Position numbers and translations under genes: made by a program. DNA of 15,783 bases from contig CAYVGZ010000036.1 of assembly GCA_964450845.1 (NCBI GenBank), positions 1 to 15,783 on the forward strand, in the 5' to 3' direction. The notes below the pieces were generated by a model. The model had not been told where the DNA came from. It searched no databases and was given only the letters and a program-made list of their open reading frames with translations. Below, piece by piece: positions 2,589-15,756 of this stretch (position 1 is the stretch's first letter; each line of letters starts with the position of its first letter). Origin of the DNA: an uncultured Candidatus Bathyarchaeia archaeon. GTDB taxonomy: Archaea; Thermoproteota; Bathyarchaeia; Bathyarchaeales; Bathycorpusculaceae.

Positions 2589-3639
2589 TCCTGCTCGTTA
2601 TGACCGCCTCGTACAAAACAGAGTTTACACTCACAGCATAAGCCACTGCAACTGCCTTTGATTGAGAAGTCAAGTCGCTGAAATCTGCGCCGATTTCTAA
2701 GGGCAACTGGGGATAAGCTGTCCATTCTGCGAATGATTCAGAGGCGTTGTTACCATTAAGCACGAGCATCATTGGGCTTGCTTCCAAAAGATGGGGAATG
2801 CTGTATTCTACGGACTGGTTTCCAACAGTTGTTTGGGAGAGGCTGGAATTGCAGCTGTAAGTGAAGACGTAGGCGTTCGATACTTCCACGTTTGAGTTTC
2901 GAAAAGAAGCGTTCAAGACATAGTTAAGAGGGCTGAGTCTAAGAAAAGTTTGATTGGGTTCGGAAGCTTCGGAATTGTGACCGAAAGAATATGCGTTGAG
3001 GGATATCATTTGAGGATGTGCTTGCGATTTTGCGAATACTACGAGTAATGCTGTTCCACCCAACACGTTGGGTAAAGTAATGTTTATTATGCCCACTCCG
3101 GAGTTGGTTGAGGAAGAAACGCTGTCAACATAGGCTCCTACGACTATGTAGCCCTTCAGCCATGTCGCAAGAGGATAGCCAGATTTGTCGGTTGACACTC
3201 TGAAAGTGTAGATGGTTTCAGTTTCTCTCATTTGGCTACTGGTCAACTCTATGGCAACTTCAAAGAGGGGACGAATTCTTATGTTGAAAGATATATCTTC
3301 GGTTCCTAAAATGGCTAGAATTTCCCTGTAGGCAAGGGAATATAGGTTGTCGGTGTTCAAACGGCTGACTTTGTCTAAGTCTAACTCGTAGGGTCGTCGA
3401 GTTTCTGACGCTAACCCGAAGGTTGATGGAATTACATCGCCGTTTTTTCCCCAATCGGATGGATTACCACTGCTTAAGAGTAGGTATTCAGCTAAGCTTC
3501 TGTAATGTTCAACTCCATTCATGTTCGCCAAGTCTTCTATGTAAGGTTGCATGACCTTAGCCGTGCCCACCATCGCTGAGGCTATGAGGATGACCATGAG
3601 CGAGCATGCGAAAAAAGTATCTATCGACGACGTGGGCAT
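2566..3639 (-). CDS. Membrane-anchored pilus accessory protein (pilin-like N-terminal helix with no cleavable leader)
   Basis: 357 aa; begins MPTSSIDTFFACSLMVILIASAMVG; predicted extracellular beta-rich body with 6 sequons; SD AAGGAGTGA upstream; inside the pilus operon. Confidence 0.7.
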   Translation of the reverse strand: MPTSSIDTFFACSLMVILIASAMVGTAKVMQPYIEDLANMNGVEHYRSLAEYLLLSSGNPSDWGKNGDVIPSTFGLASETRRPYELDLDKVSRLNTDNLYSLAYREILAILGTEDISFNIRIRPLFEVAIELTSSQMRETETIYTFRVSTDKSGYPLATWLKGYIVVGAYVDSVSSSTNSGVGIINITLPNVLGGTALLVVFAKSQAHPQMISLNAYSFGHNSEASEPNQTFLRLSPLNYVLNASFRNSNVEVSNAYVFTYSCNSSLSQTTVGNQSVEYSIPHLLEASPMMLVLNGNNASESFAEWTAYPQLPLEIGADFSDLTSQSKAVAVAYAVSVNSVLYEAVITSRSVQNFDV

Positions 3640-3655
3640 GTTCTGGCTTCACTCC

Positions 3656-5170
3656 TTATCCAGGTGTAGCGCCCAGCATCCCTGCTAGATACCCCTGCGA
3701 TAGGAGGAGGGAAACGTAGCCTGTGACTGCCAGCATAGCTGAGTACTTGAAACCAGCTGCAAAGGTACCCTCGCTTATCTTGCCGATGAAGAACCCGGAC
3801 ATCCAACATTGAAAAATTATCCCAATGGAGAACATGGTGAGCTGCTGTTGCATGGAGTTGAGCATGGTAGGCGAAGCGCCTGGCACGGTGATTTGGGTTA
3901 GGACAAAGATGGTTATCGCCACAATTGACGTCGTGAGGGCGATGAGTACACTCCAGACGAAAGCTAATAGCACATAAGGCTTGAGTGTAGACCTTTTGTT
4001 CGCTTCGATATCCTTATTCTTCTCACTGTAATCAGATAATATCTCCAGCGCTTCAGAAGAACCGCCTCCAGACTCGATAGTTTCAATTAGAATTAGAAAG
4101 TAGACAAGAACAGGCCAGCTTCTAATGCGCCTCTTTATGTTCTCAAAAATCTTCCTCAAAGGAACCCCCCATTCGATTTGGCTGCGAACAAGTTTCAAAG
4201 TCTCGCTGAACGACCCATACGCTTTCCTCTCAGTGGCATGGATAATGCTCTTCACGGGTGAAAGCCCAATTTTCCTAGACTCGGTTACATCTCTGAGAAA
4301 ACTGGGCATGGCTTCTTCTGCAACAAAGTTTTCCTTCGCAATCTTTTGATAAGCAAAAGCTGGTGGCAGAGAAATCATCAAGAGGCTTAAAGTCACGAAT
4401 CCAGGCAAAGTCAAAGCTTCGATTATGAACCCAAGCTGAGGTAGGAACATTACGGCGGCAAAAACCGCTAATGATGCTATGCCCGAAATTAGAAGGTTCC
4501 TGTAAGCCTCTTTAACAGAGAGCAGGTTGCTTTGGCGTGCAAGGTTGGCTATTGCCATAAAGACAAATGTGATGAAGGGTGTTGCTAGGAAGATTAGGGC
4601 GTACATTAGGGGTTCTGTTGCTGAAGAGGACACGCCCAAAGACAAATATTCAAACGAGCTGGTCGTAGACGTCACAGCGTAGAGAATGTACACGCACAAG
4701 GTAACGATAAGCATGACAGCATAAGCTTCAACCAACGTTCCCAACCTTTCAATAGATCTGAAAGCTGCCGCACTCTGCAGATCCAAAATCGAACGAAGCC
4801 TGCTCCTTAGATAATTAACCACATTGATGCCGCTCTTAACTGAGGAAACGTATCCTGCGAGGAAGTCGCGGTAGGTTTTGGAGTTTGCCTCTTCTGCCTT
4901 TTTATACATCACCGTTAATGGGTCACGTCCCAAAACCTCCACTTGTCGCACGACTTCTTGAGATTCTTTCTTTGTATTAGGTAGTAGGCTAACTCGACTC
5001 ATTTTCTTCCAAGCGTCGTAGATTGCGATTCCGCTGGCAGCCATCAGCGTGAAAAGCATGACTGTGAAGGGAAGCTCCTTATCGATCTCTGAGGCTTTCT
5101 GCTTCCCAGAGAGCAAGCGTATCAAGGAACTAAGCATTTTCGACGGGTTGAGTCTGGACGCCAACGGCAT
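3656..5170 (-). CDS. Type IV pilus membrane platform protein, TadC/ArlJ(FlaJ)-like, with two T2SSF domains
   Basis: 504 aa; two repeats of a cytoplasmic domain (ELPFTVMLFTLMAASG; AMPSFLRDVTESRKIG) each followed by several hydrophobic helices; directly downstream of the ATPase. Confidence 0.9.
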   Translation of the reverse strand: MPLASRLNPSKMLSSLIRLLSGKQKASEIDKELPFTVMLFTLMAASGIAIYDAWKKMSRVSLLPNTKKESQEVVRQVEVLGRDPLTVMYKKAEEANSKTYRDFLAGYVSSVKSGINVVNYLRSRLRSILDLQSAAAFRSIERLGTLVEAYAVMLIVTLCVYILYAVTSTTSSFEYLSLGVSSSATEPLMYALIFLATPFITFVFMAIANLARQSNLLSVKEAYRNLLISGIASLAVFAAVMFLPQLGFIIEALTLPGFVTLSLLMISLPPAFAYQKIAKENFVAEEAMPSFLRDVTESRKIGLSPVKSIIHATERKAYGSFSETLKLVRSQIEWGVPLRKIFENIKRRIRSWPVLVYFLILIETIESGGGSSEALEILSDYSEKNKDIEANKRSTLKPYVLLAFVWSVLIALTTSIVAITIFVLTQITVPGASPTMLNSMQQQLTMFSIGIIFQCWMSGFFIGKISEGTFAAGFKYSAMLAVTGYVSLLLSQGYLAGMLGATPG

Positions 5171-5175
5171 TCACT

Positions 5176-6759
5176 CTACCTTGTCTTTTTGGCTTTAAGG
5201 TTGAAGTAATATTTACTCAAGGCGTCGTTCACACTGCGATAGTCTCGAATGTTGTGCTCCGCCATGTCCAACAGCATCTTCTTTCGCTGTTCCAAATCAT
5301 CCAAAACCTGCTCAACAGAAACGTCCAAGTCTTTCGCAATCTTAGTTATTAAGTAACTGTCGCCAAAGTTTTCTTGGAAAGCATCGGTAGAAGCACTCCA
5401 GGTAAACACGTCTTTAATCGAGTTTGCATCCTTAATCTCGGTCACTCGGATGAATTTTCTGCTGGAAAGTCTCTTCTCCCCACTCAAGAAGATGGGCGAT
5501 CTTACATGCTTAACGATGATGGCACAGTTCATCAGGGGGATTATAGACGAAGGAATGTTCATCGGAGGCTGCGTCATCCGTTTAATCGCCGTTTCCACGT
5601 CTTCTGCATGTATCGTGCATAAACCCCCGTGTCCCGTTGCCAAGGCTTGGAATAGGACGTAGGCTTCTTCTCCTCTAACCTCGCCCACGATGATCAAATC
5701 GGGACGATGTCTTACAGCGGACTTTATCAGGTCATAAAGGGAGATTTCACCCTCGCTCTCTGTTCCAAACCCTGAACGGGCGATGGTTGCAGTCCAGTTT
5801 TCGTGGGGGAGGTTGATTTCAGCCACTTCTTCTACTGATATTATTTTGTGGTTGGGTCTGATAAGGCATGCGATGGCGTTTAGGGCGGTGGTTTTTCCTG
5901 CGCCTGTGGCTCCCATGATCATGACTGACATCTTATTCTCCATCAGAAGCCAGAGATATGCGGCTATATTTTCGTCTATAGTTTCGTTCTGGATTAAGTC
6001 TACTATAGTGAAGGGGTCTTCGCGGAACTTTCGTATGGTGAAGCTGGTTCCTGATGGAGTGGTTTCTTTTCCGTAGGACACTGCCAAACGGTGCTGTCCT
6101 GGCAAGGTGACATCTACTATGGGAAACGCTATGCTGACGTGTTTTCCTGCCTTGTGCACCATTTTCATGACGAAATCATCTAGCTCTTGTTCATCTTTGA
6201 ACAAGGCGTTGGTTCGGATGTTTTCGTAGCGTCTGTGCCAGAGGAATACGGGTTTGTTGACTCCGCTGCAGCTTATATCCTCCACGTAAGGATCATACAT
6301 CAACGAGTCGATTTTTCCGTAGCCCACTATGTCCCGTTCTAAGTAGTGGAGGATTTTTTTGAGGCTTATGGGAGAAACGTCCTTGAAGACTTTAGGGTGA
6401 GAATCAATGATGTTGGGCATTTGAGCCTTGAAGGACTCGCTGATCGTTTCCTCTCCTTCTGGAGCCTTCAACTCGTACTCTAGTATGTTCTTCATTCTAT
6501 GGAAGAGGTCGTTTTCTTCCTTCGTTAGGAGAAGTTCGTCGACTATGTAGAGGAATGTTCCTGTATCTTCATGTTGGACTATGGATGCGTAGGAGAACGG
6601 CGCCTTGAGCGGATAGGTTTCAACTTCAACATAACCTTCAGGGACTGTCCATTTCTTGAGGTTCAAGTATCCTGCTAGGGTTTCTTCGGACACGCCGAAC
6701 TCTTGTTCTCTTTGTTGTAAAGTTTCATTTTTTCTTTTCTTGTTCAAATTTAATTTCAT
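5176..6759 (-). CDS. Type II/IV secretion ATPase, TadA/VirB11/ArlI(FlaI)-like
   Basis: 527 aa; Walker A GATGAGKT, Asp box SVEEVAEI, Walker B LIIVGEVRG, His box TGHGGLCTIHA, FTIRKF motif; ATGA overlap with the upstream gene. Confidence 0.95.
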   Translation of the reverse strand: MKLNLNKKRKNETLQQREQEFGVSEETLAGYLNLKKWTVPEGYVEVETYPLKAPFSYASIVQHEDTGTFLYIVDELLLTKEENDLFHRMKNILEYELKAPEGEETISESFKAQMPNIIDSHPKVFKDVSPISLKKILHYLERDIVGYGKIDSLMYDPYVEDISCSGVNKPVFLWHRRYENIRTNALFKDEQELDDFVMKMVHKAGKHVSIAFPIVDVTLPGQHRLAVSYGKETTPSGTSFTIRKFREDPFTIVDLIQNETIDENIAAYLWLLMENKMSVMIMGATGAGKTTALNAIACLIRPNHKIISVEEVAEINLPHENWTATIARSGFGTESEGEISLYDLIKSAVRHRPDLIIVGEVRGEEAYVLFQALATGHGGLCTIHAEDVETAIKRMTQPPMNIPSSIIPLMNCAIIVKHVRSPIFLSGEKRLSSRKFIRVTEIKDANSIKDVFTWSASTDAFQENFGDSYLITKIAKDLDVSVEQVLDDLEQRKKMLLDMAEHNIRDYRSVNDALSKYYFNLKAKKTR

Positions 6760-7214
6760 CGGTTATCCCTCCAACTGCTCAGGCTGAGGGTGATGGTTGC
6801 GCCGTCTAAATAGGATTCTAAGAGAACTGGTCCGTAGCCGCTGGAATAATTGCCCATGGCAACGATTGTTTTGGGTAGGTACACTCGGTTGGTTACGTTG
6901 CCCGCGTGGATAGTTCCTAAGGCACCTTCCACCCATGCCTTTGAGCCTTCGTTTCGAAGTCTTATCCAGTATTGTTTGTTTCCGATGGCTGTGGGAAGTT
7001 GCAGAGTGGCTTCTAGGGTGGAGTTGGTTGCCGCTGTTAGGGCGGTGAGTTCGTAGCCTTTCGATGCTACGTGGTTTAGTAGATTCTTGAGTTGTTCTAT
7101 TTCAGGTATTGTTCGTAGGGTGGTGGTGTAGGCAGCGTAGGAAGAGATGAGGATGCTGGATACGGTGACTAGAGCGAAGAAGGCGTAGATGTAGCTGGGC
7201 GCGAGAGTTGGCAC
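6756..7214 (-). CDS. Small pilin-like protein with no basic leader
   Basis: 152 aa; MPTLAPSYIYAFFALVTVSSILISSY hydrophobic N-terminus; 3 sequons; GTG start with SD GGAGG at the end of the upstream gene. Confidence 0.7.
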   Translation of the reverse strand: MPTLAPSYIYAFFALVTVSSILISSYAAYTTTLRTIPEIEQLKNLLNHVASKGYELTALTAATNSTLEATLQLPTAIGNKQYWIRLRNEGSKAWVEGALGTIHAGNVTNRVYLPKTIVAMGNYSSGYGPVLLESYLDGATITLSLSSWRDNR

Positions 7215-7217
7215 TTC

Positions 7218-8060
7218 TCAGCCTCCTCCTTGGATTCTTTCCAGTTTAATGTTGCATACGAGGGTTTCGATTTTAACAAAAGCTCCGTTTGAGTTGCTTG
7301 CTACTGGAAGCACGATGGCATCGGTTCTTTCGTCTAGGGTTGCTTTTACTGTGAGGTTGGTTATGGGAGAGGTGAAGTTGTAGGTTTGTAGAGTTGAAGT
7401 TACGTTTAGGCATGTGGCTTTGATGTTGAATTCGCCCGAAGTGTTCAGGCTAGAAGACGTGTTTAAGTTGATTATGTAGATTCTGAGGGTGTTGACCGGT
7501 TTTCCTTGACTTGAGCCAGTCTCACTCATGGTTACTAAAGGACGATAGGTGAGTGTCAACTCAGGTGTAGATGCTCCTGAGGCTAGGTAGAGTTGTGCCA
7601 TCGTGAAGACGTTTTGGTTGATTATCGATTGTTTGTCACCCCTGAGGTATAGAGTGTAGACGAATTCTTCAGCCGCGGGTAGCTCGTAAACTGCTTTTCC
7701 AACGCTGCTGTTGAAGACTAGGGCGAAAAAAGTCATGTTGTCTGTGACATTTATGAGAAGGCTTTTCGCTGTTGGAAAAGTTTTGAAGACTCCCCCTGAG
7801 TCTTCGAAATGATACACGCTGGTGGTGCCTGGAGACCATGTTATCGAGTCTATGGAGTCTTCGAAGGAGAGCATGCTTTGTTTGGCTACTGAAATGTTGA
7901 GGAGTTGCCCTCTTGCTTGGATTTTCGTTACGGAGACGTAGTACGTGGCTGAGACGATTAAGGTGAGAGAGACAAAAAGCATGAGGAAGGAGACGGGCAG
8001 AGCAGTCGCTCGCTTCGATAGAAAGAATCGTAAAGCTGCTTTAACCTTTTTACTCTGCAT
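7218..8060 (-). CDS. Minor type IV pilin-like protein (class III signal peptide)
   Basis: 280 aa; basic leader ending ...SKRA| then a hydrophobic helix; 9 sequons; SD GAGG upstream; first gene of the accessory operon. Confidence 0.75.
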   Translation of the reverse strand: MQSKKVKAALRFFLSKRATALPVSFLMLFVSLTLIVSATYYVSVTKIQARGQLLNISVAKQSMLSFEDSIDSITWSPGTTSVYHFEDSGGVFKTFPTAKSLLINVTDNMTFFALVFNSSVGKAVYELPAAEEFVYTLYLRGDKQSIINQNVFTMAQLYLASGASTPELTLTYRPLVTMSETGSSQGKPVNTLRIYIINLNTSSSLNTSGEFNIKATCLNVTSTLQTYNFTSPITNLTVKATLDERTDAIVLPVASNSNGAFVKIETLVCNIKLERIQGGG

Positions 8061-8131
8061 TCATCTATTCCTCAATAGCAACCGTAAGCGACCAAGCTAA
8101 CCATTGCTTCATGGATAAATCCATAAGACGA

Positions 8132-8155
8132 TTTGTGTGTGAAACAATACTACAC
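8132..8155 (-). promoter_or_regulatory. Conserved upstream element, site A (GTGTAGTA-N7-ACACACAAA; GTGT-N11-ACAC core)
   Basis: 17/17 flanking positions identical to site B; 72 nt upstream of the 8060 start. Confidence 0.65.
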
Positions 8156-8251
8156 ATCAGAATACAGCATACGTATTCTGACACACCATTCCTTTGCGCA
8201 AAGTGTGGCATAGACGGAATACGAAACAAACCATGCAAAAAAGAAGCCTAA

Positions 8252-8284
8252 AACTCATAAAAAAAGAGAAAAAAGAAAGGGAGG
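8252..8284 (-). terminator. Oligo-T terminator of pilin 1
   Basis: Minus strand reads CCTCCCTTTCTTTTTTCTCTTTTTTTTAT just after the stop codon. Confidence 0.7.
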
Positions 8285-8294
8285 CGTTGGTAGC

Positions 8295-8813
8295 TTAACT
8301 GGCGGATTCTACGTTGACTTCTATTTTGTACTGTGCGCTAGCAGTGAAAACAGTCATACTGCAGGTGGTGCCGATGTCTTCAACGGATATGGTACCTGGG
8401 TCTTGAATATAGATGACCAAGCATTCGCCTGACTTCAAGGACAAATCGTCAGTGGCAGTGTCATAACCTGTAATGTTGGCTAGATACTCCAAGTCTGCGG
8501 TTGGTGCTGTAGTCGTTCTGTTGTAGTATATTGTGTACGCTGTCCAACTCATATCTTGGCCTCGTACTTGGATCTTGTCAATGAGAGTGTCCCTACCACC
8601 AATGTTCACTAAAACAAATGCGGCTTGCGCTACAGTGCTGTTTGTCCATATGTGTGCTTTAGTTACTTTCAGGTTTTCCTCTTGTACTCTAGTTGTGGTA
8701 ATGTTGATGGCATAGAAAGTGACGACTGTTGCCAGTAGAACTGAAACCACTAGAATAATCAACGTAGTAACTACCGTGCTAAGCCCTTTTCTGTTTTTTA
8801 GGAGACTCTTCAT
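8295..8813 (-). CDS. Major type IV pilin / archaellin-superfamily subunit, copy 1
   Basis: 172 aa; MKSLLKNRKG|LSTVVTTLIILVVSVLLATVV class III signal peptide; own TATA box, SD GGAG, ATG start and terminator. Confidence 0.9.
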   Translation of the reverse strand: MKSLLKNRKGLSTVVTTLIILVVSVLLATVVTFYAINITTTRVQEENLKVTKAHIWTNSTVAQAAFVLVNIGGRDTLIDKIQVRGQDMSWTAYTIYYNRTTTAPTADLEYLANITGYDTATDDLSLKSGECLVIYIQDPGTISVEDIGTTCSMTVFTASAQYKIEVNVESAS

Positions 8814-8863
8814 TTTTTGATTTCTCCGTGGCAGAAAGGTTCAGTTAGATGAGAATTAGAAAA

Positions 8864-8887
8864 TTTGTGTGTATTTGTGTACTACAC
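8864..8887 (-). promoter_or_regulatory. Conserved upstream element, site B
   Basis: Sense strand GTGTAGTA-CACAAAT-ACACACAAA; 51 nt upstream of the ATG and about 30 nt downstream of the TATA box. Confidence 0.65.
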
Positions 8888-8917
8888 TCGCTTATCCAAT
8901 GGTCTGTCAACATGGTT

Positions 8918-8927
8918 TTTATATAAA
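8918..8927 (-). promoter_or_regulatory. TATA box of pilin 1
   Basis: TTTATATAAA (self-complementary) between the pilin 2 terminator and the pilin 1 start; implies a 5' UTR of roughly 80 nt. Confidence 0.6.
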
Positions 8928-8968
8928 GCCTGCAATTGCTTGATTCGATTTGAGATTGGCCTGATAGT

Positions 8969-8984
8969 AAAAAAGAAAGGGAGG
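8969..8984 (-). terminator. Oligo-T terminator of pilin 2
   Basis: CCTCCCTTTCTTTTTT after the stop codon, identical to the pilin 1 copy. Confidence 0.65.
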
Positions 8985-8994
8985 CGTTGGTAGC

Positions 8995-9513
8995 TTAACT
9001 GGCGGATTCTACGTTGACTTCTATTTTGTACTGTGCGCTAGCAGTGAAAACAGTCATACTTGCCGTAGTTCCAATGTCCTGAACGGACATGGTGCCCGGG
9101 TCTTCGATGTAGATGACCAAACATTGACCTGACTTCAAGGATAGATCGTCAGTGGCATTGTCATAACCTGTGAAGTCGGTTAGAAACTCCAAGTCTGCAG
9201 TTGGTGCCGTAGTCGTCCTGTTATAATATATGCTGTAACTTGTCCAGTCCATTTCTTGGCCTCGTACTTGGATCTTGTCAATGAGAGTGTCCCTACCACC
9301 AATGTTAGAAATGACAAATGCGGCTTGCGCTACAGTGCTGTTTGTCCATATGTGTGCTTTAGTTACTCTTAGATTTTCTTCTTGTACTCTAGTTGTGGTC
9401 ACGTTAATGGCGTAGAAAGTAACAACCGTGGCAAGCAACACCGAAACCACTAGAATAATCAACGTAGTAACTACCGTGCTAAGCCCTTTTCTGTTCCTTA
9501 AAACTTGCTTCAT
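8995..9513 (-). CDS. Major type IV pilin / archaellin-superfamily subunit, copy 2
   Basis: 172 aa; MKQVLRNRKG|LSTVV...; 151/172 residues identical to copy 1 by manual count; SD GGAG. Confidence 0.9.
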   Translation of the reverse strand: MKQVLRNRKGLSTVVTTLIILVVSVLLATVVTFYAINVTTTRVQEENLRVTKAHIWTNSTVAQAAFVISNIGGRDTLIDKIQVRGQEMDWTSYSIYYNRTTTAPTADLEFLTDFTGYDNATDDLSLKSGQCLVIYIEDPGTMSVQDIGTTASMTVFTASAQYKIEVNVESAS

Positions 9514-9568
9514 TTTACTATCTCCGAACAGTTTTTAAAAGAAAAAATGCCTTCGTGAAGTATGTCTG

Positions 9569-9592
9569 TTTGTGTGTAAAGAAGAAAGACGC
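9569..9592 (-). promoter_or_regulatory. Conserved upstream element, site C (one half degenerate)
   Basis: Sense strand GCGTCTTT-CTTCTTT-ACACACAAA (CGT-N11-ACA); 56 nt upstream of the pilin 2 ATG. Confidence 0.5.
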
Positions 9593-9650
9593 AACTTAGT
9601 GGTAAAAATTGATATTTACTCTTCAAAATAATATGGTTAGATATGGTTTT

Positions 9651-10565
9651 TTAAGATGGAGAGACGATTTCCAAAGGTTTTTCAGCGTCCCATAATTCTG
9701 AGAAAAGCTTCTCTAAAGCATTGATGAAAGCTTCGTAGTTCGTCAATAATGCAGCAACCTTTTCCCTTCTAACCTTCTCTCCCGAATCGTCTCCGTTCTT
9801 CCTTATCATGAAAAGAAGCTGCCCCCGATCTACTAAGATGAAAGTGGGAACGCCTTCGACGTCTGAAACTGCAACCCTTGCATTGACAAGCTTAATTTTC
9901 TCGATAAAAAACCGGCTCTTAGATGAGCTAGTTGTCATGAGTTTAACGTCAAAGTCTTTCCTCGAAAGCCTCTCAAGCTCATCAATAAAGCCCGAATAGT
10001 ACAGTCTCCCGAGGTCTTCCTTGGAAGCGAAAACTTTTATTTCTCTCTCGGTTCTTTGAATTATCTCTTTTGCTTTCAAGTCGATCTGTTCCTCGCCCTC
10101 AAGAATTTGGAAAACTTCCTTACGTGTGAACTCCACCTGAGGCTGAGGCAACGACAACCAAATATCGACGAGGCGTTGCTTCCTACTCTCCAACCGCTGA
10201 ATCCCCAGCTTCTTGGCTTCAATGAGAGCTTCGATAGCACGCTCGAAAGGCGTAGCGATGAATTTAAGAGGCTTTTCGAAAACTGACGAGACCAGCCCTC
10301 TCTTCTCCAAATCTCGCAGTATCCTGTAGGTTTCTGTTCTGTGGAGACTGAGCGCCTCCGAAACCTCACTAGCTTTCCGCTCCTTGGAACGAGCTAAATA
10401 GACGTATACTCGAATCTCATTCTTCGAGAGGCCAAGCTTCTGGAACATGCTCTCAATGAGCTCTATAGACTTTAAAGGTCCTCTGTCTTTTCTGACGAAT
10501 TTCCATACTCCAGCATATTCGTCGTAAAGCTTGACGACCTCTTCAGAATCTTCAACTGTTTCCAC
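9651..10565 (-). CDS. TrmB-family transcriptional regulator
   Basis: Winged HTH LGLSKNEIRVYVYL...HRTETYRILRDLEKRGLV, a coiled-coil linker and a C-terminal effector-type domain. The start is uncertain (GTG 10565, or ATG 10448 giving MFQKLGL). Confidence 0.9.
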   Translation of the reverse strand: METVEDSEEVVKLYDEYAGVWKFVRKDRGPLKSIELIESMFQKLGLSKNEIRVYVYLARSKERKASEVSEALSLHRTETYRILRDLEKRGLVSSVFEKPLKFIATPFERAIEALIEAKKLGIQRLESRKQRLVDIWLSLPQPQVEFTRKEVFQILEGEEQIDLKAKEIIQRTEREIKVFASKEDLGRLYYSGFIDELERLSRKDFDVKLMTTSSSKSRFFIEKIKLVNARVAVSDVEGVPTFILVDRGQLLFMIRKNGDDSGEKVRREKVAALLTNYEAFINALEKLFSELWDAEKPLEIVSPS

Positions 10566-10685
10566 GAATAAACCATCCCAAATCTTCTAAGTCTGAATCT
10601 GAACCGAAGCAAGTTTGGGTTTGAGTTCAAGCTCTATTTTATACTTCTGAATTCACGATATGAATTGCAAATAAGTAGACGGAAC

Positions 10686-10829
10686 TTAGAAACCATCAAC
10701 TATCGTCGTTATCGCTTTTTCGCGTTTTCCATTCGAAAGATGGTCCAACTCTTTCAAAGTCTTCTCGACATTCCACTCACATGAACCTTTGGTCAAAGCC
10801 TTCCAACGCTTCAGAAGAATCGACTTCAA
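10686..10829 (-). CDS. Putative small protein, 47 aa (below the ORF-track cutoff)
   Basis: TTG start with GTGGTGG SD-like sequence upstream; MKSILLKRWKALTKGSCEWNVEKTLKELDHLSNGKREKAITTIVDGF; the start is 50 nt from site D. Confidence 0.35.
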   Translation of the reverse strand: MKSILLKRWKALTKGSCEWNVEKTLKELDHLSNGKREKAITTIVDGF

Positions 10830-10878
10830 AACAGTTAAGCCACCACACTTCTTAACTTTGGTTTTCTAGGCTATTCTA

Positions 10879-10902
10879 TTGGTGTGTAAAACTCTACAAC
10901 AT
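10879..10902 (-). promoter_or_regulatory. Conserved upstream element, site D
   Basis: Sense strand ATGTTGTA-GAGTTTT-ACACACCAA (TGT-N11-ACA), in the divergent region between trmB and the 10948 gene. Confidence 0.5.
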
Positions 10903-10947
10903 ACAAATTCTCTTATCTCTCGAAAAACATGTAACCATTAATGTCTA

Positions 10948-11619
10948 ATGGTGGGTTGCTTTATGGAAGAGAAGCCAGAAGAAAAATCAGAACAAAAGTC
11001 TAAGCAGGCTAAGGGCGAAAACGTTCCATCACAGGATGCCCAGAATGAAACTTATCTTTCATACACACGCCAACTGCAGAACAGCGAGTTAGAAGTTGAA
11101 GAGAGCAAGGAATTAGAAGAGAAACGCGGAGAGATTGAAAACAAGTTTAACGAGTTTCTAACAGCGATAAACGAGGAAACCTTGCAACTGAGCGAATTCC
11201 TTATCGAAGAGAAAAAGCTAACTGACGAACTTTGTGGCTTACTTACTCAGACTCTTAGACGGTTGAATATCTCCTTCTACATCTCACCTGAATACGTTGC
11301 AAAGCTTGGAGAGGCGAGACAGATCAAGCTGAACAGAGAAGGGCACCTGATAATCATCCGAGAGCGGGACAAGGTGGATTCGAAGCTCTTAAGCGACTAT
11401 CCCCCTGACATTATCTTGACTGTTGCGTGGGTTATCATCCCAGAGCTTGAGAAGGCGATGAAAGCCTACAGAAGCAGAATAAGCAAGAGAGTAAGCCTTC
11501 TCGAGAAGATAAAGCAGGAACTAAAGAATATTGAAAAAGCGTTCTCGCCGACCGAAGCAGAAAGCGGTGAGCAACTCGGAGAGGGAACAAGCAGACCCCT
11601 AGTAATAGGTGAAAGCTAG
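10948..11619 (+). CDS. Hypothetical coiled-coil protein (helix - small alpha/beta domain - helix)
   Basis: 223 aa, E/K/L-rich with heptad-like segments at both ends. The ATG at 10963 with a GGTGG SD is the more likely start. Confidence 0.8.
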   Translation: MVGCFMEEKPEEKSEQKSKQAKGENVPSQDAQNETYLSYTRQLQNSELEVEESKELEEKRGEIENKFNEFLTAINEETLQLSEFLIEEKKLTDELCGLLTQTLRRLNISFYISPEYVAKLGEARQIKLNREGHLIIIRERDKVDSKLLSDYPPDIILTVAWVIIPELEKAMKAYRSRISKRVSLLEKIKQELKNIEKAFSPTEAESGEQLGEGTSRPLVIGES

Positions 11620-11652
11620 ACGCAGCATTTTAGCCGAGCCGTGGTGTAGAAA

Positions 11653-12198
11653 TTGAGGAATGTCGTCACCGAAATCCGCAGTTTTTATTCGATTAAAGAG
11701 ATGACCGAAGCAATAGAAGAAGAAATGGAACAGTACAAGTCGGTGGCAGACGAGTACAGCCAATGGCTCGGCTCCCTCCTCCGAGACTTAGAAGAGACTT
11801 CTGAAGACGAAGAATGGCTTAAAAAGATGGCAACACTGCAGAAATCAAAGCTGAAGGGAAAAACAAAGCCAACACAGAAAAAAGAGAAAGCTAAGACGAA
11901 ACAAGCTTCAGTCGAGTGGGTTCAGTTGAAAGAGCTTGCTCTCAGTGCTTCCGAACAGAGCGAGGCTGAAATCCTTTTCGAAGCCATAGAAAAAATCAAC
12001 ACAAAAATAGAGCGCCTCGAAAAAGTCAAGGAATCCTTGTTGCAACTAGAGAAGTCTGGATTAGGCAAGGACATAACTTATGTAACCTACATCTGCGACG
12101 GGGTGCCCGAGAAAATCGTCCTCCGCCACAAGAAAGAAGAAGAGTTCGCCAAGAAGTTCCAGTACATAGCTGATTTCCTAGCAGTAAATGTGACGTAG
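11653..12198 (+). CDS. Hypothetical coiled-coil protein (helical hairpin with a Lys-rich linker)
   Basis: 181 aa; TTG start with GGTG SD; two long amphipathic helices around KGKTKPTQKKEKAKTK. Confidence 0.8.
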   Translation: MRNVVTEIRSFYSIKEMTEAIEEEMEQYKSVADEYSQWLGSLLRDLEETSEDEEWLKKMATLQKSKLKGKTKPTQKKEKAKTKQASVEWVQLKELALSASEQSEAEILFEAIEKINTKIERLEKVKESLLQLEKSGLGKDITYVTYICDGVPEKIVLRHKKEEEFAKKFQYIADFLAVNVT

Positions 12199-12201
12199 TA
12201 G

Positions 12202-13959
12202 CTAGGCTGTTGCGCTGTACTGGGTGAAGATTTTGGTGAATTTCTTCATTAAGTCGTAAGGCGTGTCCACGACGCAGTTGAAACGGAAATAATTCTTCAC
12301 CGCCCTGCTTTTCACACCGATTCCTATTACTCCAACACCCAATTTTTCAGCCCTTCTCACGTTCTGTACGAGTTTCTGTTCTATATCGCTGTAGCCCGAT
12401 GGGAAAAAATCAGAAACCACTATCAAAATTTTGGACTGCTCACCACGTTTTCTTAGTATATTACTCATCACCAATATTCCATCGGGCAAGTAAGTCATTC
12501 CACTATAGGATAACCCCCCTATCCTCGCATGAGAACCGACTGTGTAGTTTTCCGAAAAGTCTTTTATTATGTAGAACTTGTTGTTAAACGCAAACATTCC
12601 CCACGCTCGTTGGTCTTGAATAATGCTTTTCGCCACCTCGCCTAAGCACAGGGCGATCCCACGCACTGTGGTCATCGCGAGGTTTAAGCTGTGGCTTGCG
12701 TCCACGAGTACTGCCCAAGTTTGCTCGCTGGTTTGCAATTCTTCGCGGACGAAAATGTCGGTGCGACGACTCTTGCTGGCAACTATTTGGATGGCTTCTT
12801 GCAAGTCGAGAAGACCGCTTTCATGTTTGAAGTCTTCGCCCGTGATGTTCTTAAGAAGACGAAGCTTCTCCATTATACGTCTAATCTGTCCTCCTAGAAG
12901 GGCTCGATGGCGCAGAAAGTCAACATAGTCCTCTTTAGGGAATTCTATGGACTGAAAATTCGTGTTCTCCAAAAGAGGCTTGTAGCTCTCCAGTATTTTC
13001 TTCTCTTTAGTTTCCTTAGCCTCCCAAGCAGAAAAGATTTGGTAGATTTCGCCTTCTAGCACGTTCTCCTTCTCCTCCACGTTCACATTCTCTTGACAGT
13101 TAAAGCCCGACTCAATAGAAGTGCTTTGCAAAAAAGCGTTGACCTCGTCTTCGGTGGGTAGAATGTCATTGAAAAGAACACTATTTTTTCCATGGCTCTC
13201 ACTGTATAGCATGAAGGGAGCATCTGCAGTTTTGCGGTATTTGGCTAGAATGTTAAAAATTTTCGTTGCAATGTTTAACCTGAGTTCTCTAGATTCTTTG
13301 GGAATGGCAAGTAACAAGTCTTCTCCACTTACTTCATTCAACTCCTGAAACTTCTGGAAAGCGAAACCTTCGATTTCCCTTGCCAGAGAAACTATTGTGT
13401 TAACATCGTTCATCACGTCCTCTGGCACTTTGTTTTTCACCCTTCCCACGTAATATTGTGTAAAAGCGGAAGTCATGGTAAGAAGAGCCTTATTTGACAC
13501 ATGACTCCAAGAGCGCATTCGGAGGTATGAAACAGCGTTTGCATAAACGATATCTTGAATCAAATTTGGCCATTTTGCCCTGAGGTAGGCATTCACTACG
13601 GCATCTTCTACAAGGTTTGCCGAGAAGGTGGCGAGGTTGACATCCTTATTTCTAGCCCAGTCGTCGTAGGTTTTATAGTCCGAAACTGCAACATGCATGC
13701 TCAGATGAAAAGTTGATGCTTTGAACAGTTTCCACATCAGTTTTCTATGAAATGGATTGTTATAGTCTAAGACCATATCTTGATAACCCATTAAGCCATC
13801 AGTGATTCTGCGCGGCTTTACCAAACAGAGGACAAAGCCTACGTCATCGTAGCTCAGTGTTGGAAACTTCAAGTTGTCTCGGAGAAGAAGTTTCACTGTT
13901 TCTCTGTCTTTTCGTGAAATCTGGAGCAGAGCTGCCCAAGCGTAGTCAAAAAAGCTCAT
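12202..13959 (-). CDS. VWA-domain protein, NorD/CbbO/CobT-like partner of a MoxR AAA+ ATPase
   Basis: 585 aa; C-terminal MIDAS (LVDASHS...GMTYLPDG...VVSDFFP); SGLLDLQEAIQ pre-VWA segment; 15 nt downstream of the AAA+ gene. Confidence 0.85.
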   Translation of the reverse strand: MSFFDYAWAALLQISRKDRETVKLLLRDNLKFPTLSYDDVGFVLCLVKPRRITDGLMGYQDMVLDYNNPFHRKLMWKLFKASTFHLSMHVAVSDYKTYDDWARNKDVNLATFSANLVEDAVVNAYLRAKWPNLIQDIVYANAVSYLRMRSWSHVSNKALLTMTSAFTQYYVGRVKNKVPEDVMNDVNTIVSLAREIEGFAFQKFQELNEVSGEDLLLAIPKESRELRLNIATKIFNILAKYRKTADAPFMLYSESHGKNSVLFNDILPTEDEVNAFLQSTSIESGFNCQENVNVEEKENVLEGEIYQIFSAWEAKETKEKKILESYKPLLENTNFQSIEFPKEDYVDFLRHRALLGGQIRRIMEKLRLLKNITGEDFKHESGLLDLQEAIQIVASKSRRTDIFVREELQTSEQTWAVLVDASHSLNLAMTTVRGIALCLGEVAKSIIQDQRAWGMFAFNNKFYIIKDFSENYTVGSHARIGGLSYSGMTYLPDGILVMSNILRKRGEQSKILIVVSDFFPSGYSDIEQKLVQNVRRAEKLGVGVIGIGVKSRAVKNYFRFNCVVDTPYDLMKKFTKIFTQYSATA

Positions 13960-13974
13960 GGTTCATCTACTGCA

Positions 13975-15027
13975 TTAACTTCTAAAGTTTGCGAGAACTA
14001 TCCGCCTAACCATTTCTTGCACTTCGGCATCATCGCTGGTCGTGCAGATAATCGTCTCTTCAGCCGCTTCTGCAGATGTACATCCATCAGCAACCAACAC
14101 TGCCCAGTTTATCAAGTCACCTGGCGAAGGCCCATACGGTAAGTCACCGCTTTTATACTGGCGTCTCAGCTCAGCTCCGACTTTTACGATGTTATGAGCG
14201 ACATCTTCGCTCACGTTGCTGCGCTTCTTGACAAGAGTCACTTCATCAGGGCACACATTATTTCCGATGCTCAGGTAGTCGAAGTTTATCCACACTGACA
14301 TGCGGCGTCTGAGGGCGGCATTCAAGGGCTTTGTGCCCACGAATTCTGATGAGAAGGGATTCATGGAAATGATTAGATAACCGTAGGGGTGACGATGCAC
14401 CACTTCGTTGTCTTTCTCAGTCAAAACTATGTGTCCCCTAGTGTCGAGCAGAGGGTTAAGCCTGGAAGCTATGTCTTGTTTCATCATGTTAGCTTCGTCT
14501 AAGTAGAGAATGCCGCCTAGGCGACACCATGATATTATCTGACCGTCTATCCAATTCTCTTTCCCAAGACCTATGTACCTTCCGAAGAGATCGTAGGATG
14601 ATGTTTGTAAGCCGCAGTTGACTTCCCAAATCGGAAGCCCGTTGAGTTCGGCTACAAGGTAGACTATGTGGGTTTTTCCTGTGCCGCTAGGTCCTATTAA
14701 GGAGCATTGTTTAAAGTGGTAGAGGGCTCGCGTGATGCGTTCTACGTACTTCTCTCCTCGGTCCACGTATTCGGGCGTGTTTTTTGGAATCATGCTTTCT
14801 AGAAAATCTGGGAAGACGTAGCCTGGGTGCAGGTCGTATTTTGCTATGTCGTATTTCGTGTAGAGCGTTGGTTTTCCGTTGGGTTGTTTTGCGAGGGATA
14901 CATGGAAGCGTGTGGCGGCTATTTCTGTGCTGAATTGGGTTTCTTTTAAGCTTAAGGTACCTTGTTTCTTTTTTTGTCCTTGATGGCTGAAGCCCATGGC
15001 TGAAGAATTTTCTGTTGTTTTTGGCAA
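13975..15027 (-). CDS. MoxR-family AAA+ ATPase (CbbQ/NirQ/NorQ-like)
   Basis: 350 aa; Walker A GPSGTGKT, Walker B LYLDEAN, sensor MNP, Arg finger ALRRRM, C-terminal PSPGDLINWA lid; TTG start with AAGGAG SD. Confidence 0.9.
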   Translation of the reverse strand: MPKTTENSSAMGFSHQGQKKKQGTLSLKETQFSTEIAATRFHVSLAKQPNGKPTLYTKYDIAKYDLHPGYVFPDFLESMIPKNTPEYVDRGEKYVERITRALYHFKQCSLIGPSGTGKTHIVYLVAELNGLPIWEVNCGLQTSSYDLFGRYIGLGKENWIDGQIISWCRLGGILYLDEANMMKQDIASRLNPLLDTRGHIVLTEKDNEVVHRHPYGYLIISMNPFSSEFVGTKPLNAALRRRMSVWINFDYLSIGNNVCPDEVTLVKKRSNVSEDVAHNIVKVGAELRRQYKSGDLPYGPSPGDLINWAVLVADGCTSAEAAEETIICTTSDDAEVQEMVRRIVLANFRS

Positions 15028-15120
15028 GAGGAGAGTCTCCTTGTATGGCTGCTTGTTATTCTAGGGAAGCAGTTGATTTAAATATTGTGCATTACGATTC
15101 AATATAGAAAGCCAGAGTGT

Positions 15121-15144
15121 CTGTCGCTGGAACCTACACACAAA
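15121..15144 (+). promoter_or_regulatory. Conserved upstream element, site E
   Basis: CTGTCGCT-GGAACCT-ACACACAAA (TGT-N11-ACA); on the opposite strand from sites A-D but with the same orientation relative to its downstream gene (91 nt to the ATG at 15235). Confidence 0.5.
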
Positions 15145-15234
15145 GAAGAAAAACGCATGAAGAGCTAATGCAACCTTTGACTAGACGTTAAACAAGCAAT
15201 AAATGGGGTATCCAAGATTTGTCCATCAGCTAGC

Positions 15235-15756
15235 ATGTTCAATGTTGCGGTTAGTGTTGAGGTTCGCAGTTTATTAGGCGTCAAGCTAGCTGACAACTTG
15301 GGCAGCGGAGAAACCATCAGCTTCGACGTGAAGGCTCGGATGGAAGAAAAAGAGCGACGCAGCGGCAGGGTTGCCGTGGGATTCTCTTTAAGCGTCGGGA
15401 CTAAGCCGAGCGTGGTGAAGTTTGAGGTGGAGGGCATAGCCATTTTGGAGGGCAGGGACTCTGAAATTGAGAAGATGCTGGAAGTAGATCCTGAGACGCA
15501 GATTCCCTACGTCTTCCAACGAGTCTACCAACATGTTTTCATGTCCATGTACCTCTTATCAACCCTCATTGATACACCTTATCCGCCGCCTAACTTGCTT
15601 TTTTCGGGACAGCAGCAAGTGTCCGCCGCTTCGATTAGTCAAGGCTCTGCAACAAGTGAAAAAGAGAATACTCAAGCGGTCGAGGTGGTTGCAGCAGCGC
15701 CTGAAGAGGAGCCTTTAGAACCGAGTCAAGAGAACACAGAGCCCAAAAGAAGCTAA
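15235..15756 (+). CDS. Hypothetical protein, possible SecB-like chaperone fold, with an acidic low-complexity tail
   Basis: 173 aa; alternating beta strands (SFDVKARM, VAVGFSLSV, VKFEVEGIAIL), then helices and PYPPPNLL, which resembles the SecB secondary-structure order. This is pattern recognition only. Confidence 0.5.
   Translation: MFNVAVSVEVRSLLGVKLADNLGSGETISFDVKARMEEKERRSGRVAVGFSLSVGTKPSVVKFEVEGIAILEGRDSEIEKMLEVDPETQIPYVFQRVYQHVFMSMYLLSTLIDTPYPPPNLLFSGQQQVSAASISQGSATSEKENTQAVEVVAAAPEEEPLEPSQENTEPKRS

Follow-up and report, generated by a model that had tools for sequence, protein, structure and literature searches.

A MoxR-type ATPase, a VWA protein and a SecB-fold protein tied to a type IV pilus in Bathyarchaeia

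Gene content of the locus

The window, that is, the whole stretch of 15,783 nucleotides analysed here (contig CAYVGZ010000036.1 of an uncultured Candidatus Bathyarchaeia archaeon), contains a type IV pilus operon, a regulator gene and a set of accessory genes (Table 1). An earlier, sequence-only reading had listed two major pilins, five accessory subunits, one ATPase and one platform protein next to trmB, two coiled-coil genes, a MoxR AAA+/VWA pair and a SecB-like gene, and all of these were found. The same reading began the region at position 7218; most of the pilus genes are located to the left of that position.

The two major pilin genes form a tandem duplication (700-nt period, 87% nucleotide identity), and their products have the class III signal peptide RKG/LS in common; pilin A also matches the UpsA model of NCBIfam (E 3.6e-6, below the cutoff of the model). 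The nearest NCBIfam models for PilB are FlaI (355 bits, below cutoff) and BasE, and PilC is BasF/UpsF-like by the same collection. Each of the five accessory proteins has one N-terminal hydrophobic helix. The place of p152 and p280 upstream of PilB is kept in orthologous loci, and the gene order of p258, p144 and p357 is retained in orthologous pilus operons.

Table 1. Positions of genes and promoter elements in the window
Feature	Position	Strand	Remarks
Type IV pilus operon	1381-9513		two tandem pilins, PilB, PilC, five pilin-like proteins
p258, pilin-like accessory	1381-2157	-	N-terminal hydrophobic helix
p144, pilin-like accessory	2154-2588	-	N-terminal hydrophobic helix; weak DUF7288 match
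p357, pilin-like accessory	2566-3639	-	N-terminal hydrophobic helix
PilC/TadC-type platform protein (PilC/T2SSF)	3656-5170	-	PF00482 T2SSF, 62.6 bits
PilB-type assembly ATPase (PilB/T2SSE)	5176-6759	-	PF00437 T2SSE, 121.7 bits
p152, pilin-like accessory	6756-7214	-	N-terminal hydrophobic helix; weak DUF7266 match
p280, pilin-like accessory	7218-8060	-	N-terminal hydrophobic helix
Operator O1	8135-8157	.	GTGTGTG-N9-TACACAT; p280 operon promoter, inside doubtful ORF
Pilin B (pilinB), major pilin	8295-8813	-	class III signal peptide MKSLLKNRKG/LSTVV; Pilin_N E 0.018, below cutoff
Operator O2	8867-8889	.	GTGTGTA-N9-TACACTC; upstream of pilin B
Pilin A (pilinA), major pilin	8995-9513	-	class III signal peptide; Pilin_N E 0.0026, below cutoff
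Operator O3	9572-9594	.	degenerate, 3 mismatches; upstream of pilin A
TrmB-family transcription regulator	9651-10565	-	PF01978, 60.4 bits vs 25.6 cutoff
TrmB promoter, second conserved element	10631-10674	-	rATTCAkATTTTGAATTCAGAAG + TATAAAATA
Operator O4	10882-10904	.	GTGTGTA-N9-AACATAC; upstream of cc223-cc181
cc223	10948-11619	+	acidic disordered N-terminus, then helical hairpin with small beta cap; AF2 pLDDT 79
cc181	11653-12198	+	helix, Lys-rich linker, helix, C-terminal beta segment; predicted p173 partner
NorD-like VWA adaptor	12202-13959	-	intact MIDAS; D420, S422, S424, D517 invariant in 26 orthologues
MoxR-class AAA+ ATPase (CbbQ/NorQ/GvpN type)	13975-15027	-	AAA_5 73.7 bits, CbbQ_C 56.6 bits
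Operator O5	15119-15141	.	GTCTGTC-N9-TACACAC; divergent AAA / p173 promoter
p173	15235-15756	+	SecB-fold domain (about 1-120) and acidic disordered tail; AF2 pLDDT 81

The AAA+ ATPase and its VWA partner

Comparison of the ATPase with the PDB gave matches to the midasin AAA region (2e-52), to NorQ (2e-21) and also to CbbQ, and its Walker A and B motifs and an RRR motif are invariant. A VWA_2 domain is present in 25 of the 26 members of the VWA family, the profile of which matches NorD (9qhd_G, 3e-8) and CobT. The pairs NorQ/NorD, CbbQ/CbbO and CobS/CobT are the best solved-structure matches of the two proteins and, as here, place an ATPase with AAA_5 and CbbQ_C domains beside a protein of about 600 residues with a C-terminal VWA/MIDAS. 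Unlike these systems, the present pair has no NO reductase, Rubisco or cobaltochelatase context, and it is set apart from them by the VWA protein, whose N-terminal 400 residues match nothing, and by an N-terminal extension of about 85-100 residues that precedes the AAA_5/NorQ-matching region of the ATPase. The action of vWA-MoxR systems has been described elsewhere (PMC7159879, PMC9976466).

A SecB-fold protein and two helical proteins

The AF2 model of p173 consists of four strands followed by two helices, the fold of SecB and Rv1957, and the top Foldseek matches were all SecB or SecB-like Rv1957 (probability 1.0, E 5e-5). A Pfam search with p173 gave no match, and it has no sequence-family match to SecB; of its 491 homologues, those among the matches listed bear only "hypothetical" names. 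It differs from both SecB and Rv1957 in its long acidic tail. Archaea are not known to have SecA.

The sequence-only reading had called cc223 and cc181 coiled-coil proteins; they are indeed helical, but both have small beta parts as well. The cc223 family, for which a Pfam search gave no match, is kept in both archaeal classes in which the module occurs (alignment A4), and the true start of the gene at this locus is probably the ATG at 10963. Across the same two classes G40, R44, W89 and F109 of cc181 are invariant (alignment A3), and the cc181 gene adjoins that of p173 where the module is dispersed. A model of the cc181-p173 complex scored 0.61, against 0.00 for the best of three controls. 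Of 80 solved complexes, 58 attained this level, as did 2 of 110 mismatched pairs; these counts are only approximate here because our analysis used its own alignments. Contact agreement among runs was at least 79%, and the pLDDT of the partner at least 84. The model predicts that p173 binds cc181, gripping its C-terminal 14 residues, in the manner of Rv1957, the chaperone of a toxin-antitoxin-chaperone (TAC) system, which grips the C-terminal extension of its antitoxin (PMC6377645); unlike the Rv1957 system, however, the present locus has neither toxin nor antitoxin.

The module might serve disassembly or retraction, with the ATPase/VWA pair and a SecB-fold holdase extracting or recycling pilins, or resetting the PilB-PilC motor, in place of PilT. 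Archaea are not known to have a PilT ATPase, and a search of ORFs and domains revealed no second PilB/PilT-type ATPase at the locus. A SecB fold would suit the holding of unfolded or hydrophobic segments, and conservation of the ATPase is unusually high (58-71% identity from one class to the other, vs 46-50% for PilB). MoxR and midasin-type machines, moreover, pull on a MIDAS-bound ligand (PMC7159879). However, the module is cytoplasmic, and membrane segments are absent from all six of its proteins, whereas a mature pilin is embedded in the membrane and exposes hardly anything to the cytoplasm; our data nowhere favor disassembly over assembly. We therefore consider a retraction aid improbable.

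A regulator and a palindromic operator

The N-terminal TrmB winged helix of the regulator is above the Pfam cutoff, as in TrmB/TrmBL1, and a spaced palindrome is available as its candidate site. In contrast to these sugar-responsive proteins, its C-terminal effector domain resembles that of TrmB only weakly (Regulator_TrmB, 14.3 bits), and its putative targets are pilus and chaperone genes rather than those of sugar metabolism. In most loci the trmB gene has a conserved place next to either the module or the pilus operon.

The upstream element that had been noticed in both halves of the region (TKGTGTGTR, five copies vs 0.43 expected) is part of a palindrome, GTGTGTA-N9-TACACAC, that recurs at the five operators of Table 1. 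The 57-aa ORF at 8065-8238, in which O1 lies, is probably merely the p280 promoter. Equivalents of O1 occur 44-75 nt upstream of p280 in four other loci (L038, L060, L061 and L062), those of O4 have an unchanged location in L031-33, L035 and L038, and perfect copies stand at the O5 position in L035, L039 and L041; the element is thus conserved in orthologous promoters, and it is present in both classes. GTGTGTA is the top-enriched upstream 7-mer (26 copies in 16.7 kb vs 27 in 506 kb), and the palindrome, with up to two mismatches, was found 30 times in 683 kb, vs about two expected. Twenty of these 30 copies lie upstream of pilin, p280, PilB, cc223, cc181, AAA or p173 genes. The operator is also shared by unlinked loci of one genome, namely L031 (position 6502) and L060 (position 4987) in G163, and L033 and L061 in G082. 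In genera g4 and g7 it is diverged or ambiguous, with N8-spaced variants only, and none was seen there at the cc181-p173 pair.

The protein that binds this operator is most likely the TrmB encoded at the locus. Its own promoter carries a different element, which has 84-93% nucleotide identity across 37 orthologous loci, and no other intergenic copy of ATTCAGAA is present in the window; the palindrome may therefore be the site of some other factor, or TrmB itself may be separately controlled. Activation and repression are indistinguishable here, because it is ambiguous how the operator lies with respect to the TATA box.

It is possible, though in our estimation unlikely, that the whole module is regulatory, like ArnB, and that the VWA protein, the ATPase and their partners control the expression or activity of the pilus, for instance by sequestering or remodeling TrmB or another signaling protein, with no contact with the machine. 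As with the ArnA/ArnB repressors of the Sulfolobus archaellum, a VWA protein is here associated with a type IV filament; the thaumarchaeal VWA protein belongs to the ArnB arCOG, for which an "alternative regulatory pathway" was suggested (Makarova et al., PMC4858521). Across 80 loci no gene neighbors AAA-VWA-cc181-cc223 as constantly as trmB, also when the pilus operon lies at a distance, and the Lys-rich linker of cc181 could bind DNA or an acidic partner. On the other hand, the partners of ArnB are an FHA protein and kinases, and it is never found in T4P loci (PMC4858521), whereas here the VWA partner is a MoxR ATPase, the genes lie within or are co-regulated with the pilus locus, and a domain search of the window found no FHA/ArnA-like partner, kinase or phosphatase. 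The closest solved relatives (NorQ/NorD, CbbQ/CbbO, CobS/CobT and midasin) are assembly chaperones, not regulators; the module genes, moreover, have the operator in their own promoters and so also belong to what the switch controls.

Linkage and co-occurrence with the pilus

A gene-neighborhood and co-occurrence analysis, one of the checks that the sequence-only reading had proposed, showed that the module is linked to the pilus and that in two archaeal classes the two co-occur almost perfectly. In 10 of 20 related genomes the ATPase/VWA pair has pilus genes no more than 10 kb away, and at least five different gene orders are represented across five families. Among 80 species-level loci, many of them on short contigs, 22 show the linkage, and eight Nitrososphaerales-type loci have TrmB, cc181, cc223, p173, AAA, VWA, pilin, PilB and PilC together. 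In 201 Bathyarchaeia genomes, where PilB orthologues form a clear top tier (at least 58% identity), 28 of the 29 ATPase-bearing genomes (G000, the genome carrying this contig, aside) have one; PilB occurs alone in three genomes, and about 168 lack both. Among 101 Nitrososphaerales-type genomes 23 have both, two the ATPase only and three PilB only. All of these counts are from related genomes and not from independent events. In one of the two ATPase-only cases, a complete genome that lacks the PilB orthologue, the ATPase gene is a pseudogene with a frameshift. The phyletic pattern of p173 in Bathyarchaeia is nearly the same patchy one, and the patchiness extends within genera: the same 5 of 11 g4 genomes have the parts. 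Where the parts are scattered over contigs, all are still present.

The module might instead be an unrelated neighbor that serves another client, or a MoxR-vWA conflict (defense) system that happens to lie near pilus genes. Bacterial ternary conflict systems of this kind exist (PMC7159879), and in many genomes, including those of many hot-spring Bathyarchaeia, the module is distant from the pilus operon. However, in both classes the phyletic patterns are almost the same, unlinked loci share the operator, and in G000 the operator is not a general promoter feature: the whole genome has seven sites with up to two mismatches, four on this contig and the other three intragenic. VMAP, iSTAND, FtsH and effector domains were not found, PADLOC gave no system match, and the window has no nor, cbb, cox or gvp genes. 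An unrelated neighbor is thus very improbable. Because of the conserved linkage, the near-perfect co-occurrence and the operator in orthologous promoters, the AAA+/VWA/SecB-like/helical block is supported as being specifically tied to this pilus type.

Proposed role and relation to published work

The reading that we prefer, and to which we give about an even chance, is a single TrmB-switched regulon made up of an adhesive archaeal type IV pilus of clade-4 type (two major pilins, five minor subunits, PilB and PilC) and a cytoplasmic module for maturation, loading or remodeling of the pilus machine. The module would comprise the NorQ/NorD-like pair, p173 holding the C-terminal segment of cc181, and the helical-hairpin protein cc223. 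TrmB, by binding GTGTGTA-N9-TACACAC, would switch pilus and module genes together. If the pair works like NorQ/NorD, CbbQ/CbbO and midasin, the VWA protein may use its MIDAS to grip a client by an acidic residue or an acidic tail. Candidates are p173 or cc223, each by its acidic tail, or PilB/PilC on their cytoplasmic side. A hexameric ATPase would hydrolyze ATP to pull on the client, so that the pilus assembly machine is matured, loaded or remodeled; p173-cc181 would act as a holdase or adaptor. Our best guess for the function of the module is thus an assembly or remodeling chaperone of the pilus machinery, acting presumably in assembly rather than disassembly.

The sequence-only reading had presented this as an undescribed system. 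For p173, cc181, cc223, the regulator and the operator we found no published description, but the link of the pair to pili has been in print since 2016, when Makarova, Koonin and Albers described a strong link between thaumarchaeal subclade-4A pilus loci and the pair of a GvpN/MoxR-like ATPase (arCOG00441) and a vWA protein (arCOG02900) (PMC4858521). The VWA partner and the clade-4 pilus link are the same here, and the present ATPase is of the same family and 58-67% identical to the Nitrososphaerales-type ATPase beside pilin-PilB-PilC. That study was limited to the pair and to Thaumarchaeota, and a SecB-fold protein, cc181, cc223, a TrmB regulator and an operator are all absent from its text; the present module, in a bathyarchaeial host, adds the SecB-fold protein, cc181, cc223 and TrmB, all of them in both classes, and the palindromic operator.

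The pilus locus

The window is an entire contig (15,783 nt) of a genome of 1.64 Mb that is 93% complete, and carries a type IV pilus operon set with a module of six genes to its right, none of whose products has a membrane segment. The two tandem pilin genes (period 700 nt, 87% nucleotide identity) both encode the class III signal peptide RKG/LSTVV and a transmembrane window (8-40), and their Pilin_N Pfam score is under the cutoff. Each of the products p280, p152, p357, p144 and p258 has a single N-terminal hydrophobic helix, and the adjacent PilB and PilC genes match T2SSE (PF00437, 121.7 bits) and T2SSF (PF00482, 62.6 bits), respectively. An A24 prepilin peptidase (49.3 bits, above the cutoff) lies outside the window, elsewhere in the same genome. 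PilB and PilC together, class III pilins and the prepilin peptidase place the system among the archaeal type IV pili (TFF superfamily, clade 4). No Pfam or NCBIfam family for ArlF/G/H/X, ArlCDE or archaellins was found in any window protein, and PilB scored 355 bits against the FlaI model, the cutoff of which is 550.

The 57-codon ORF over the promoter region is probably not a gene, and at other loci only the p280 promoter occupies this place. A radical SAM gene to the left of the operon, with weak DUF1848 and spore-photoproduct-lyase-like matches, does not accompany the module at those loci that were examined, and an Rfam search of the window found no RNA family.

Features of the contig and related sites in other contigs and genomes
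Feature	Sequence	Position	Strand	Remark
Radical SAM gene	window	386-1255	+	
Type IV pilus operon set	window	9513 down to 1381	-	
57-codon ORF	window	8065-8238	-	includes O1
Operator O1	window	8135		
Operator O2	window	8867		
Operator O3	window	9572		
TrmB	window	9651-10565	-	
TrmB promoter	window	10631-10674	-	second element
Operator O4	window	10882		
cc223	window	10948-11619	+	
cc181	window	11653-12198	+	
VWA protein	window	12202-13959	-	
AAA+ ATPase	window	13975-15027	-	
Operator O5	window	15119		
p173	window	15235-15756	+	
Separate pilin, then peptidase	G000 (host genome):C23	4960-6200		
A24 prepilin peptidase	G000:C23	5679-6041		
Frameshifted ATPase	G253:C1	1079535-1080403		complete genome
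Site with 8-nt spacer	L040	10802-10829		
Site with 8-nt spacer	L042	9282-9309		
Site with 8-nt spacer	L049	2557-2584		
Palindrome near PilB paralogue	G090:C1	1771177-1771199		complete genome
p173 paralogue	G166:C11	4222-4605		
p173 paralogues	G154:C24, G187:C6, G145:C1, G130:C66, G163:C13, G190:C6			

Linkage and co-occurrence

The sequence-only reading had proposed that the AAA+/VWA block belongs to the pilus, and gene neighbourhoods bear this out: in 10 of 20 related genomes, the ATPase/VWA pair has pilus genes no more than 10 kb away, the linkage being seen in at least five gene orders and five taxonomic families. A scan of 185,579 genomes gave 80 species-level loci, in which AAA-VWA / cc181-cc223 / TrmB is the most frequent cassette; 22 of the loci have pilus genes inside the fetched flank, many of the contigs being short. 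Genomes with the parts dispersed over contigs nevertheless have all of them, grouped into the sub-modules AAA-VWA(-cc223), cc181-p173, and TrmB beside the pilus operon. The ATPase orthologue also occurs, at 61-67% identity, in a second class, where 13 of the 43 genomes of one family of the phylum have it. Eight loci of this family, of the Nitrososphaerales type, unite TrmB, cc181, cc223, large pilin-like genes, p173, AAA, VWA, pilins, PilB and PilC in one block, and the homology of cc181, cc223 and p173 between the two classes consists of alignable conserved residues, not of shared composition. Two short contigs with the archaeal module (L079 and L145) are filed in bacterial bins (Krumholzibacteriaceae and Acidoferrum), most likely by mis-binning.

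The co-occurrence expected across Bathyarchaeia was also found. Of 201 sampled genomes of the class, 29 (the host genome not counted) have the ATPase orthologue and 31 have PilB orthologues (at least 58% identity, a tier distinct from the paralogues at 55% or less); 28 genomes have both, one the ATPase only, three PilB only and about 168 neither, these being counts from related genomes and not independent events. The contig of the ATPase-only genome terminates beside the module. The pattern of p173 matches that of the ATPase and PilB, and two of the three genomes with PilB alone have p173 as well. The distribution is patchy both between the genera of a family and inside a genus: in g4, 5 of 11 genomes have the genes, and these are always the same five. 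This repeated patchiness within genera argues against simple inheritance. Of 101 genomes sampled from the family in the second class, 23 have both orthologues (21 without G496 and G524, which are unpublished), two the ATPase only (one of them, a complete genome without the PilB orthologue, in a frameshifted copy) and three PilB only; these genomes, too, are related, and the counts are not of independent events. Thus, by three independent lines, namely linkage, co-occurrence and recurrence in a second class, the module is tied to the pilus.

One complete Nitrososphaerales-type genome without a PilB orthologue (G253) has a pilus-linked ATPase that is frameshifted into two overlapping frames, and looks like a pseudogene decaying once the pilus was lost.

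A shared operator and its candidate regulator

An element recurring upstream of genes in both halves of the pilus-module block had been noted before, and it is real: TKGTGTGTR occurs five times in the window versus 0.43 expected. In an unbiased count over 27 Bathyarchaeia loci, GTGTGTA was the top-enriched 7-mer upstream of module and pilus genes (26 in 16.7 kb versus 27 in 506 kb), well above TATA-like words. The aligned instances give a palindrome, GTGTGTA-N9-TACACAC, which we call the operator. Seven sites with up to two mismatches exist in the whole host genome, of which this contig has four; the remaining three fall inside long ORFs. In 683 kb from 35 loci, 30 such sites were counted where about two are expected. 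For 20 of the 30, the gene for pilin, p280, PilB, cc223, cc181, AAA or p173 follows at a distance of no more than 300 nt, so that the element is kept in orthologous promoters, as the first proposal required; three AAA/p173 promoters have perfect copies. At the same promoters the Nitrososphaerales-type loci have GTATGTA-N9-TACATAC variants, which cluster at the locus in complete genomes (four of five sites in G281 and two of two in G412). A loose pattern, GTNTGTA-N9-TACANAC with one mismatch, is genome-wide no commoner than a reversed control, and for it the clustering at the locus alone is informative. In two genomes where module and pilus are on separate contigs (G163, loci L031 and L060; G082, loci L033 and L061), the operator is present at both places and therefore looks like the mark of a trans-acting regulon.

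Several further sites were observed. The only sites seen between the ATPase and cc223 in genera g4 and g7 have a spacer of 8 nt in place of 9 nt (GTATGTA-N8-TACGTAC), and either the operator has diverged there or the register is different; no clear operator site was seen at the dispersed cc181-p173 pairs of these genera. G090 carries a perfect palindrome of the operator class (GTCTGTA-N9-TACATAC) with a PilB paralogue (48% identity) some 285 nt downstream of it, and the regulator may be common to a second pilus system in this genome. The host genome has a separate pilin gene (MPTKNILKTKKA/ISPILATLLL...), followed by its A24 prepilin peptidase. Here TTACACGCACACACAAACA, a close match to the half-site of the pilin A operator, stands some 22 nt past the TATA box in the downstream direction, and this may be a further member of the regulon.

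The regulator gene of the locus encodes a TrmB-family protein, with a winged-helix domain (PF01978) at 60.4 bits versus a cutoff of 25.6 and a weak match to the C-terminal, sugar-binding effector domain (PF11495; 14.3 bits, under the cutoff of 22.2). As the sole regulator conserved in the locus, TrmB is the natural candidate for the operator-binding protein; we only infer this, because its own promoter carries a different element and it is ambiguous where the operator lies with respect to the likely TATA boxes. The half-site resembles TACATA, which is bound by EarA of Methanococcus, and no other sign of kinship with EarA was seen in the regulator here, so that EarA is a lead only. In the TrmB promoter, the second element (rATTCAkATTTTGAATTCAGAAG) is directly upstream of TATAAAATA and adjoins the TATA box. 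Over 37 loci from many species the identity of this element is 84-93%, far above that of the flanking spacer, and most loci also have a CAGAATCGAATTCTG-like palindrome after the TATA box. The TrmB-cc223 spacer contains a 46-codon frame, which shows no conservation at the protein level.

The ATPase and VWA pair

The ATPase is a MoxR-class enzyme and combines an AAA_5 core (73.7 bits) with a CbbQ_C lid (56.6 bits), as in the CbbQ/NorQ/GvpN group. Its motifs GPSGTGKT (Walker A), DEAN (Walker B) and RRR (arginine) are invariant in 14 orthologues, and among solved structures it is best matched by the midasin AAA modules (2e-52), NorQ (2e-21), CbbQ and CobS. Between the two archaeal classes the ATPases are 58-71% identical (alignment A6), versus 46-50% for PilB, about 27% for the pilins and, by alignment, 21-26% for VWA and 14-24% for p173 at the same loci; for an accessory factor, the constraint on the ATPase is unusually strong.

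The VWA protein (585 aa), whose gene is 15 nt from that of the ATPase, has a C-terminal VWA domain with a complete MIDAS (D420, S422, S424 and D517, all invariant), and its family profile matches NorD (3e-8) and CobT at the corresponding C-terminal position. In adjoining a MoxR ATPase and in this domain it resembles co-chaperones of the NorD/CbbO type. NorQ/NorD and CbbQ/CbbO are encoded with their client enzymes, NO reductase and Rubisco; neither the window nor any of the related loci that were examined has genes for these enzymes. The first 400 residues match no Pfam family even at E 10, and a single-sequence PDB search of them gave nothing meaningful; the near-invariant H85, H89 and D119 (HLxxH ... 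ED) of this N-terminal domain may be a metal site.

The pair could in principle be an unrelated neighbour of the pilus, or belong to one of the MoxR-vWA ternary conflict systems, which are defined by a third component and vWA effector domains (Kaur et al. 2020; PMC7159879). Neither Pfam nor PADLOC revealed VMAP, iSTAND, FtsH, a beta-propeller third component or vWA effector domains here, and PADLOC matched no defence-system model beyond generic HTH and P-loop similarities. With these signatures missing, and in view of the co-occurrence and the shared operator, we consider this explanation very unlikely.

The three partner proteins

That p173 is SecB-like, as first read, holds at the level of the fold. 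Its AlphaFold model (pLDDT 81) has four strands, then two helices and a disordered acidic tail, and a Foldseek search of the PDB placed only SecB structures and the SecB-like chaperone Rv1957 at the top (probability 1.0; E from 5e-5 to 1e-3; TM by target, 0.44-0.59). No Pfam or NCBIfam family, Pfam SecB included, matched p173 at E up to 0.1, and among its 491 homologues those listed are named solely 'hypothetical'. SecB is a tetramer that hands clients to SecA, a protein that archaea are not known to have.

The protein cc181 consists of a helix, a Lys-rich linker, a second helix and a C-terminal beta segment, with several residues invariant in both classes, and its gene adjoins that of p173 in every case of a dispersed module. 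A predicted cc181-p173 complex scored 0.61 (best of three controls, 0.00). In a reference set, 58 of 80 solved complexes attained this level, as did 2 of 110 mismatched pairs; these counts apply only roughly here, because our own alignments were used. Contacts agreed by at least 79% between runs and the partner pLDDT was at least 84; in the model the C-terminal 14 residues of cc181 run antiparallel along residues 29-38 of p173. The prediction supports binding of cc181 to p173, and recalls the SecB-like TAC chaperone that grips the C-terminal extension of its antitoxin (PMC6377645).

The predicted fold of cc223, a disordered acidic N-terminus followed by two long helices with a small four-strand unit between them, has a topology similar to that of prefoldin (two long helices, beta hairpins), and no fold match is supported. 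Foldseek found no PDB match at E 0.001 or better, prefoldin appearing at E of about 1; a wide VIA-align search gave generic long-helix matches alone (Z of about 6), and an Atlas feature search only unnamed Bathyarchaeota clusters.

Relation to known systems and proposed function

The system is real and conserved, and its kind is known in outline: Makarova, Koonin and Albers (2016; PMC4858521) described an arCOG00441 ATPase and an arCOG02900 vWA protein in thaumarchaeal pilus loci. Orthology to that pair is judged by identity and neighbourhood, not by arCOG numbers: the ATPase is 61-67% identical to the ATPase beside VWA, pilin, PilB and PilC in the eight loci, which are from genomes of the ammonia-oxidiser type. 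The text of that paper has no mention of Bathyarchaeia, TrmB, a SecB-like protein or the helical proteins, and our literature search found nothing later on the subject. Added here are a fuller parts list, a cross-class regulon and a predicted protein pair; the function is a proposal by analogy.

In known MoxR/VWA pairs, the MIDAS grips an acidic residue of the client and ATP hydrolysis remodels it during complex assembly (PMC7159879; PMC9976466). By the same token, the MIDAS here would hold an acidic residue of a client, the acidic tails of p173 and cc223 being candidate ligands, and the ATPase would remodel the client by ATP hydrolysis. Because the module is cytoplasmic, plausible targets are the cytoplasmic PilB-PilC platform, newly made prepilins, and its own partners. 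We favour, with middling confidence, an assembly or remodelling chaperone that would be switched on together with the pilus. A regulatory role like that of ArnB is possible, if rather doubtful; neither an FHA nor a kinase domain, traits of the ArnA/ArnB module, was found in the window. It is unlikely that the module would aid disassembly or retraction, and slightly less probable again that the MoxR/VWA pair and the SecB-fold holdase form the long-sought machine in the cytoplasm, extracting, recycling or resetting subunits or the motor in archaeal pili, which lack PilT; if true, this would be a new, AAA+-driven route to pilus dynamics, common to Bathyarchaeia and ammonia-oxidising archaea.

Archaea have type IV pili as their chief organelles of adhesion and of the cell surface, and no chaperone or remodeller in the cytoplasm is known for these pili. 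A strongly conserved AAA+/VWA machine with three partners appears here as the fixed companion of one pilus type, in sediment Bathyarchaeia and ammonia-oxidising Nitrososphaerales-type lineages, which are abundant and mostly uncultured. The parts list, the candidate operator and regulator, and the predicted pair can be tested directly with recombinant proteins, without genetics in the native hosts.

Distant paralogues of p173 (E 1e-9 to 1e-15 versus the p173 profile) were also observed, away from the module, in many genomes of the set.
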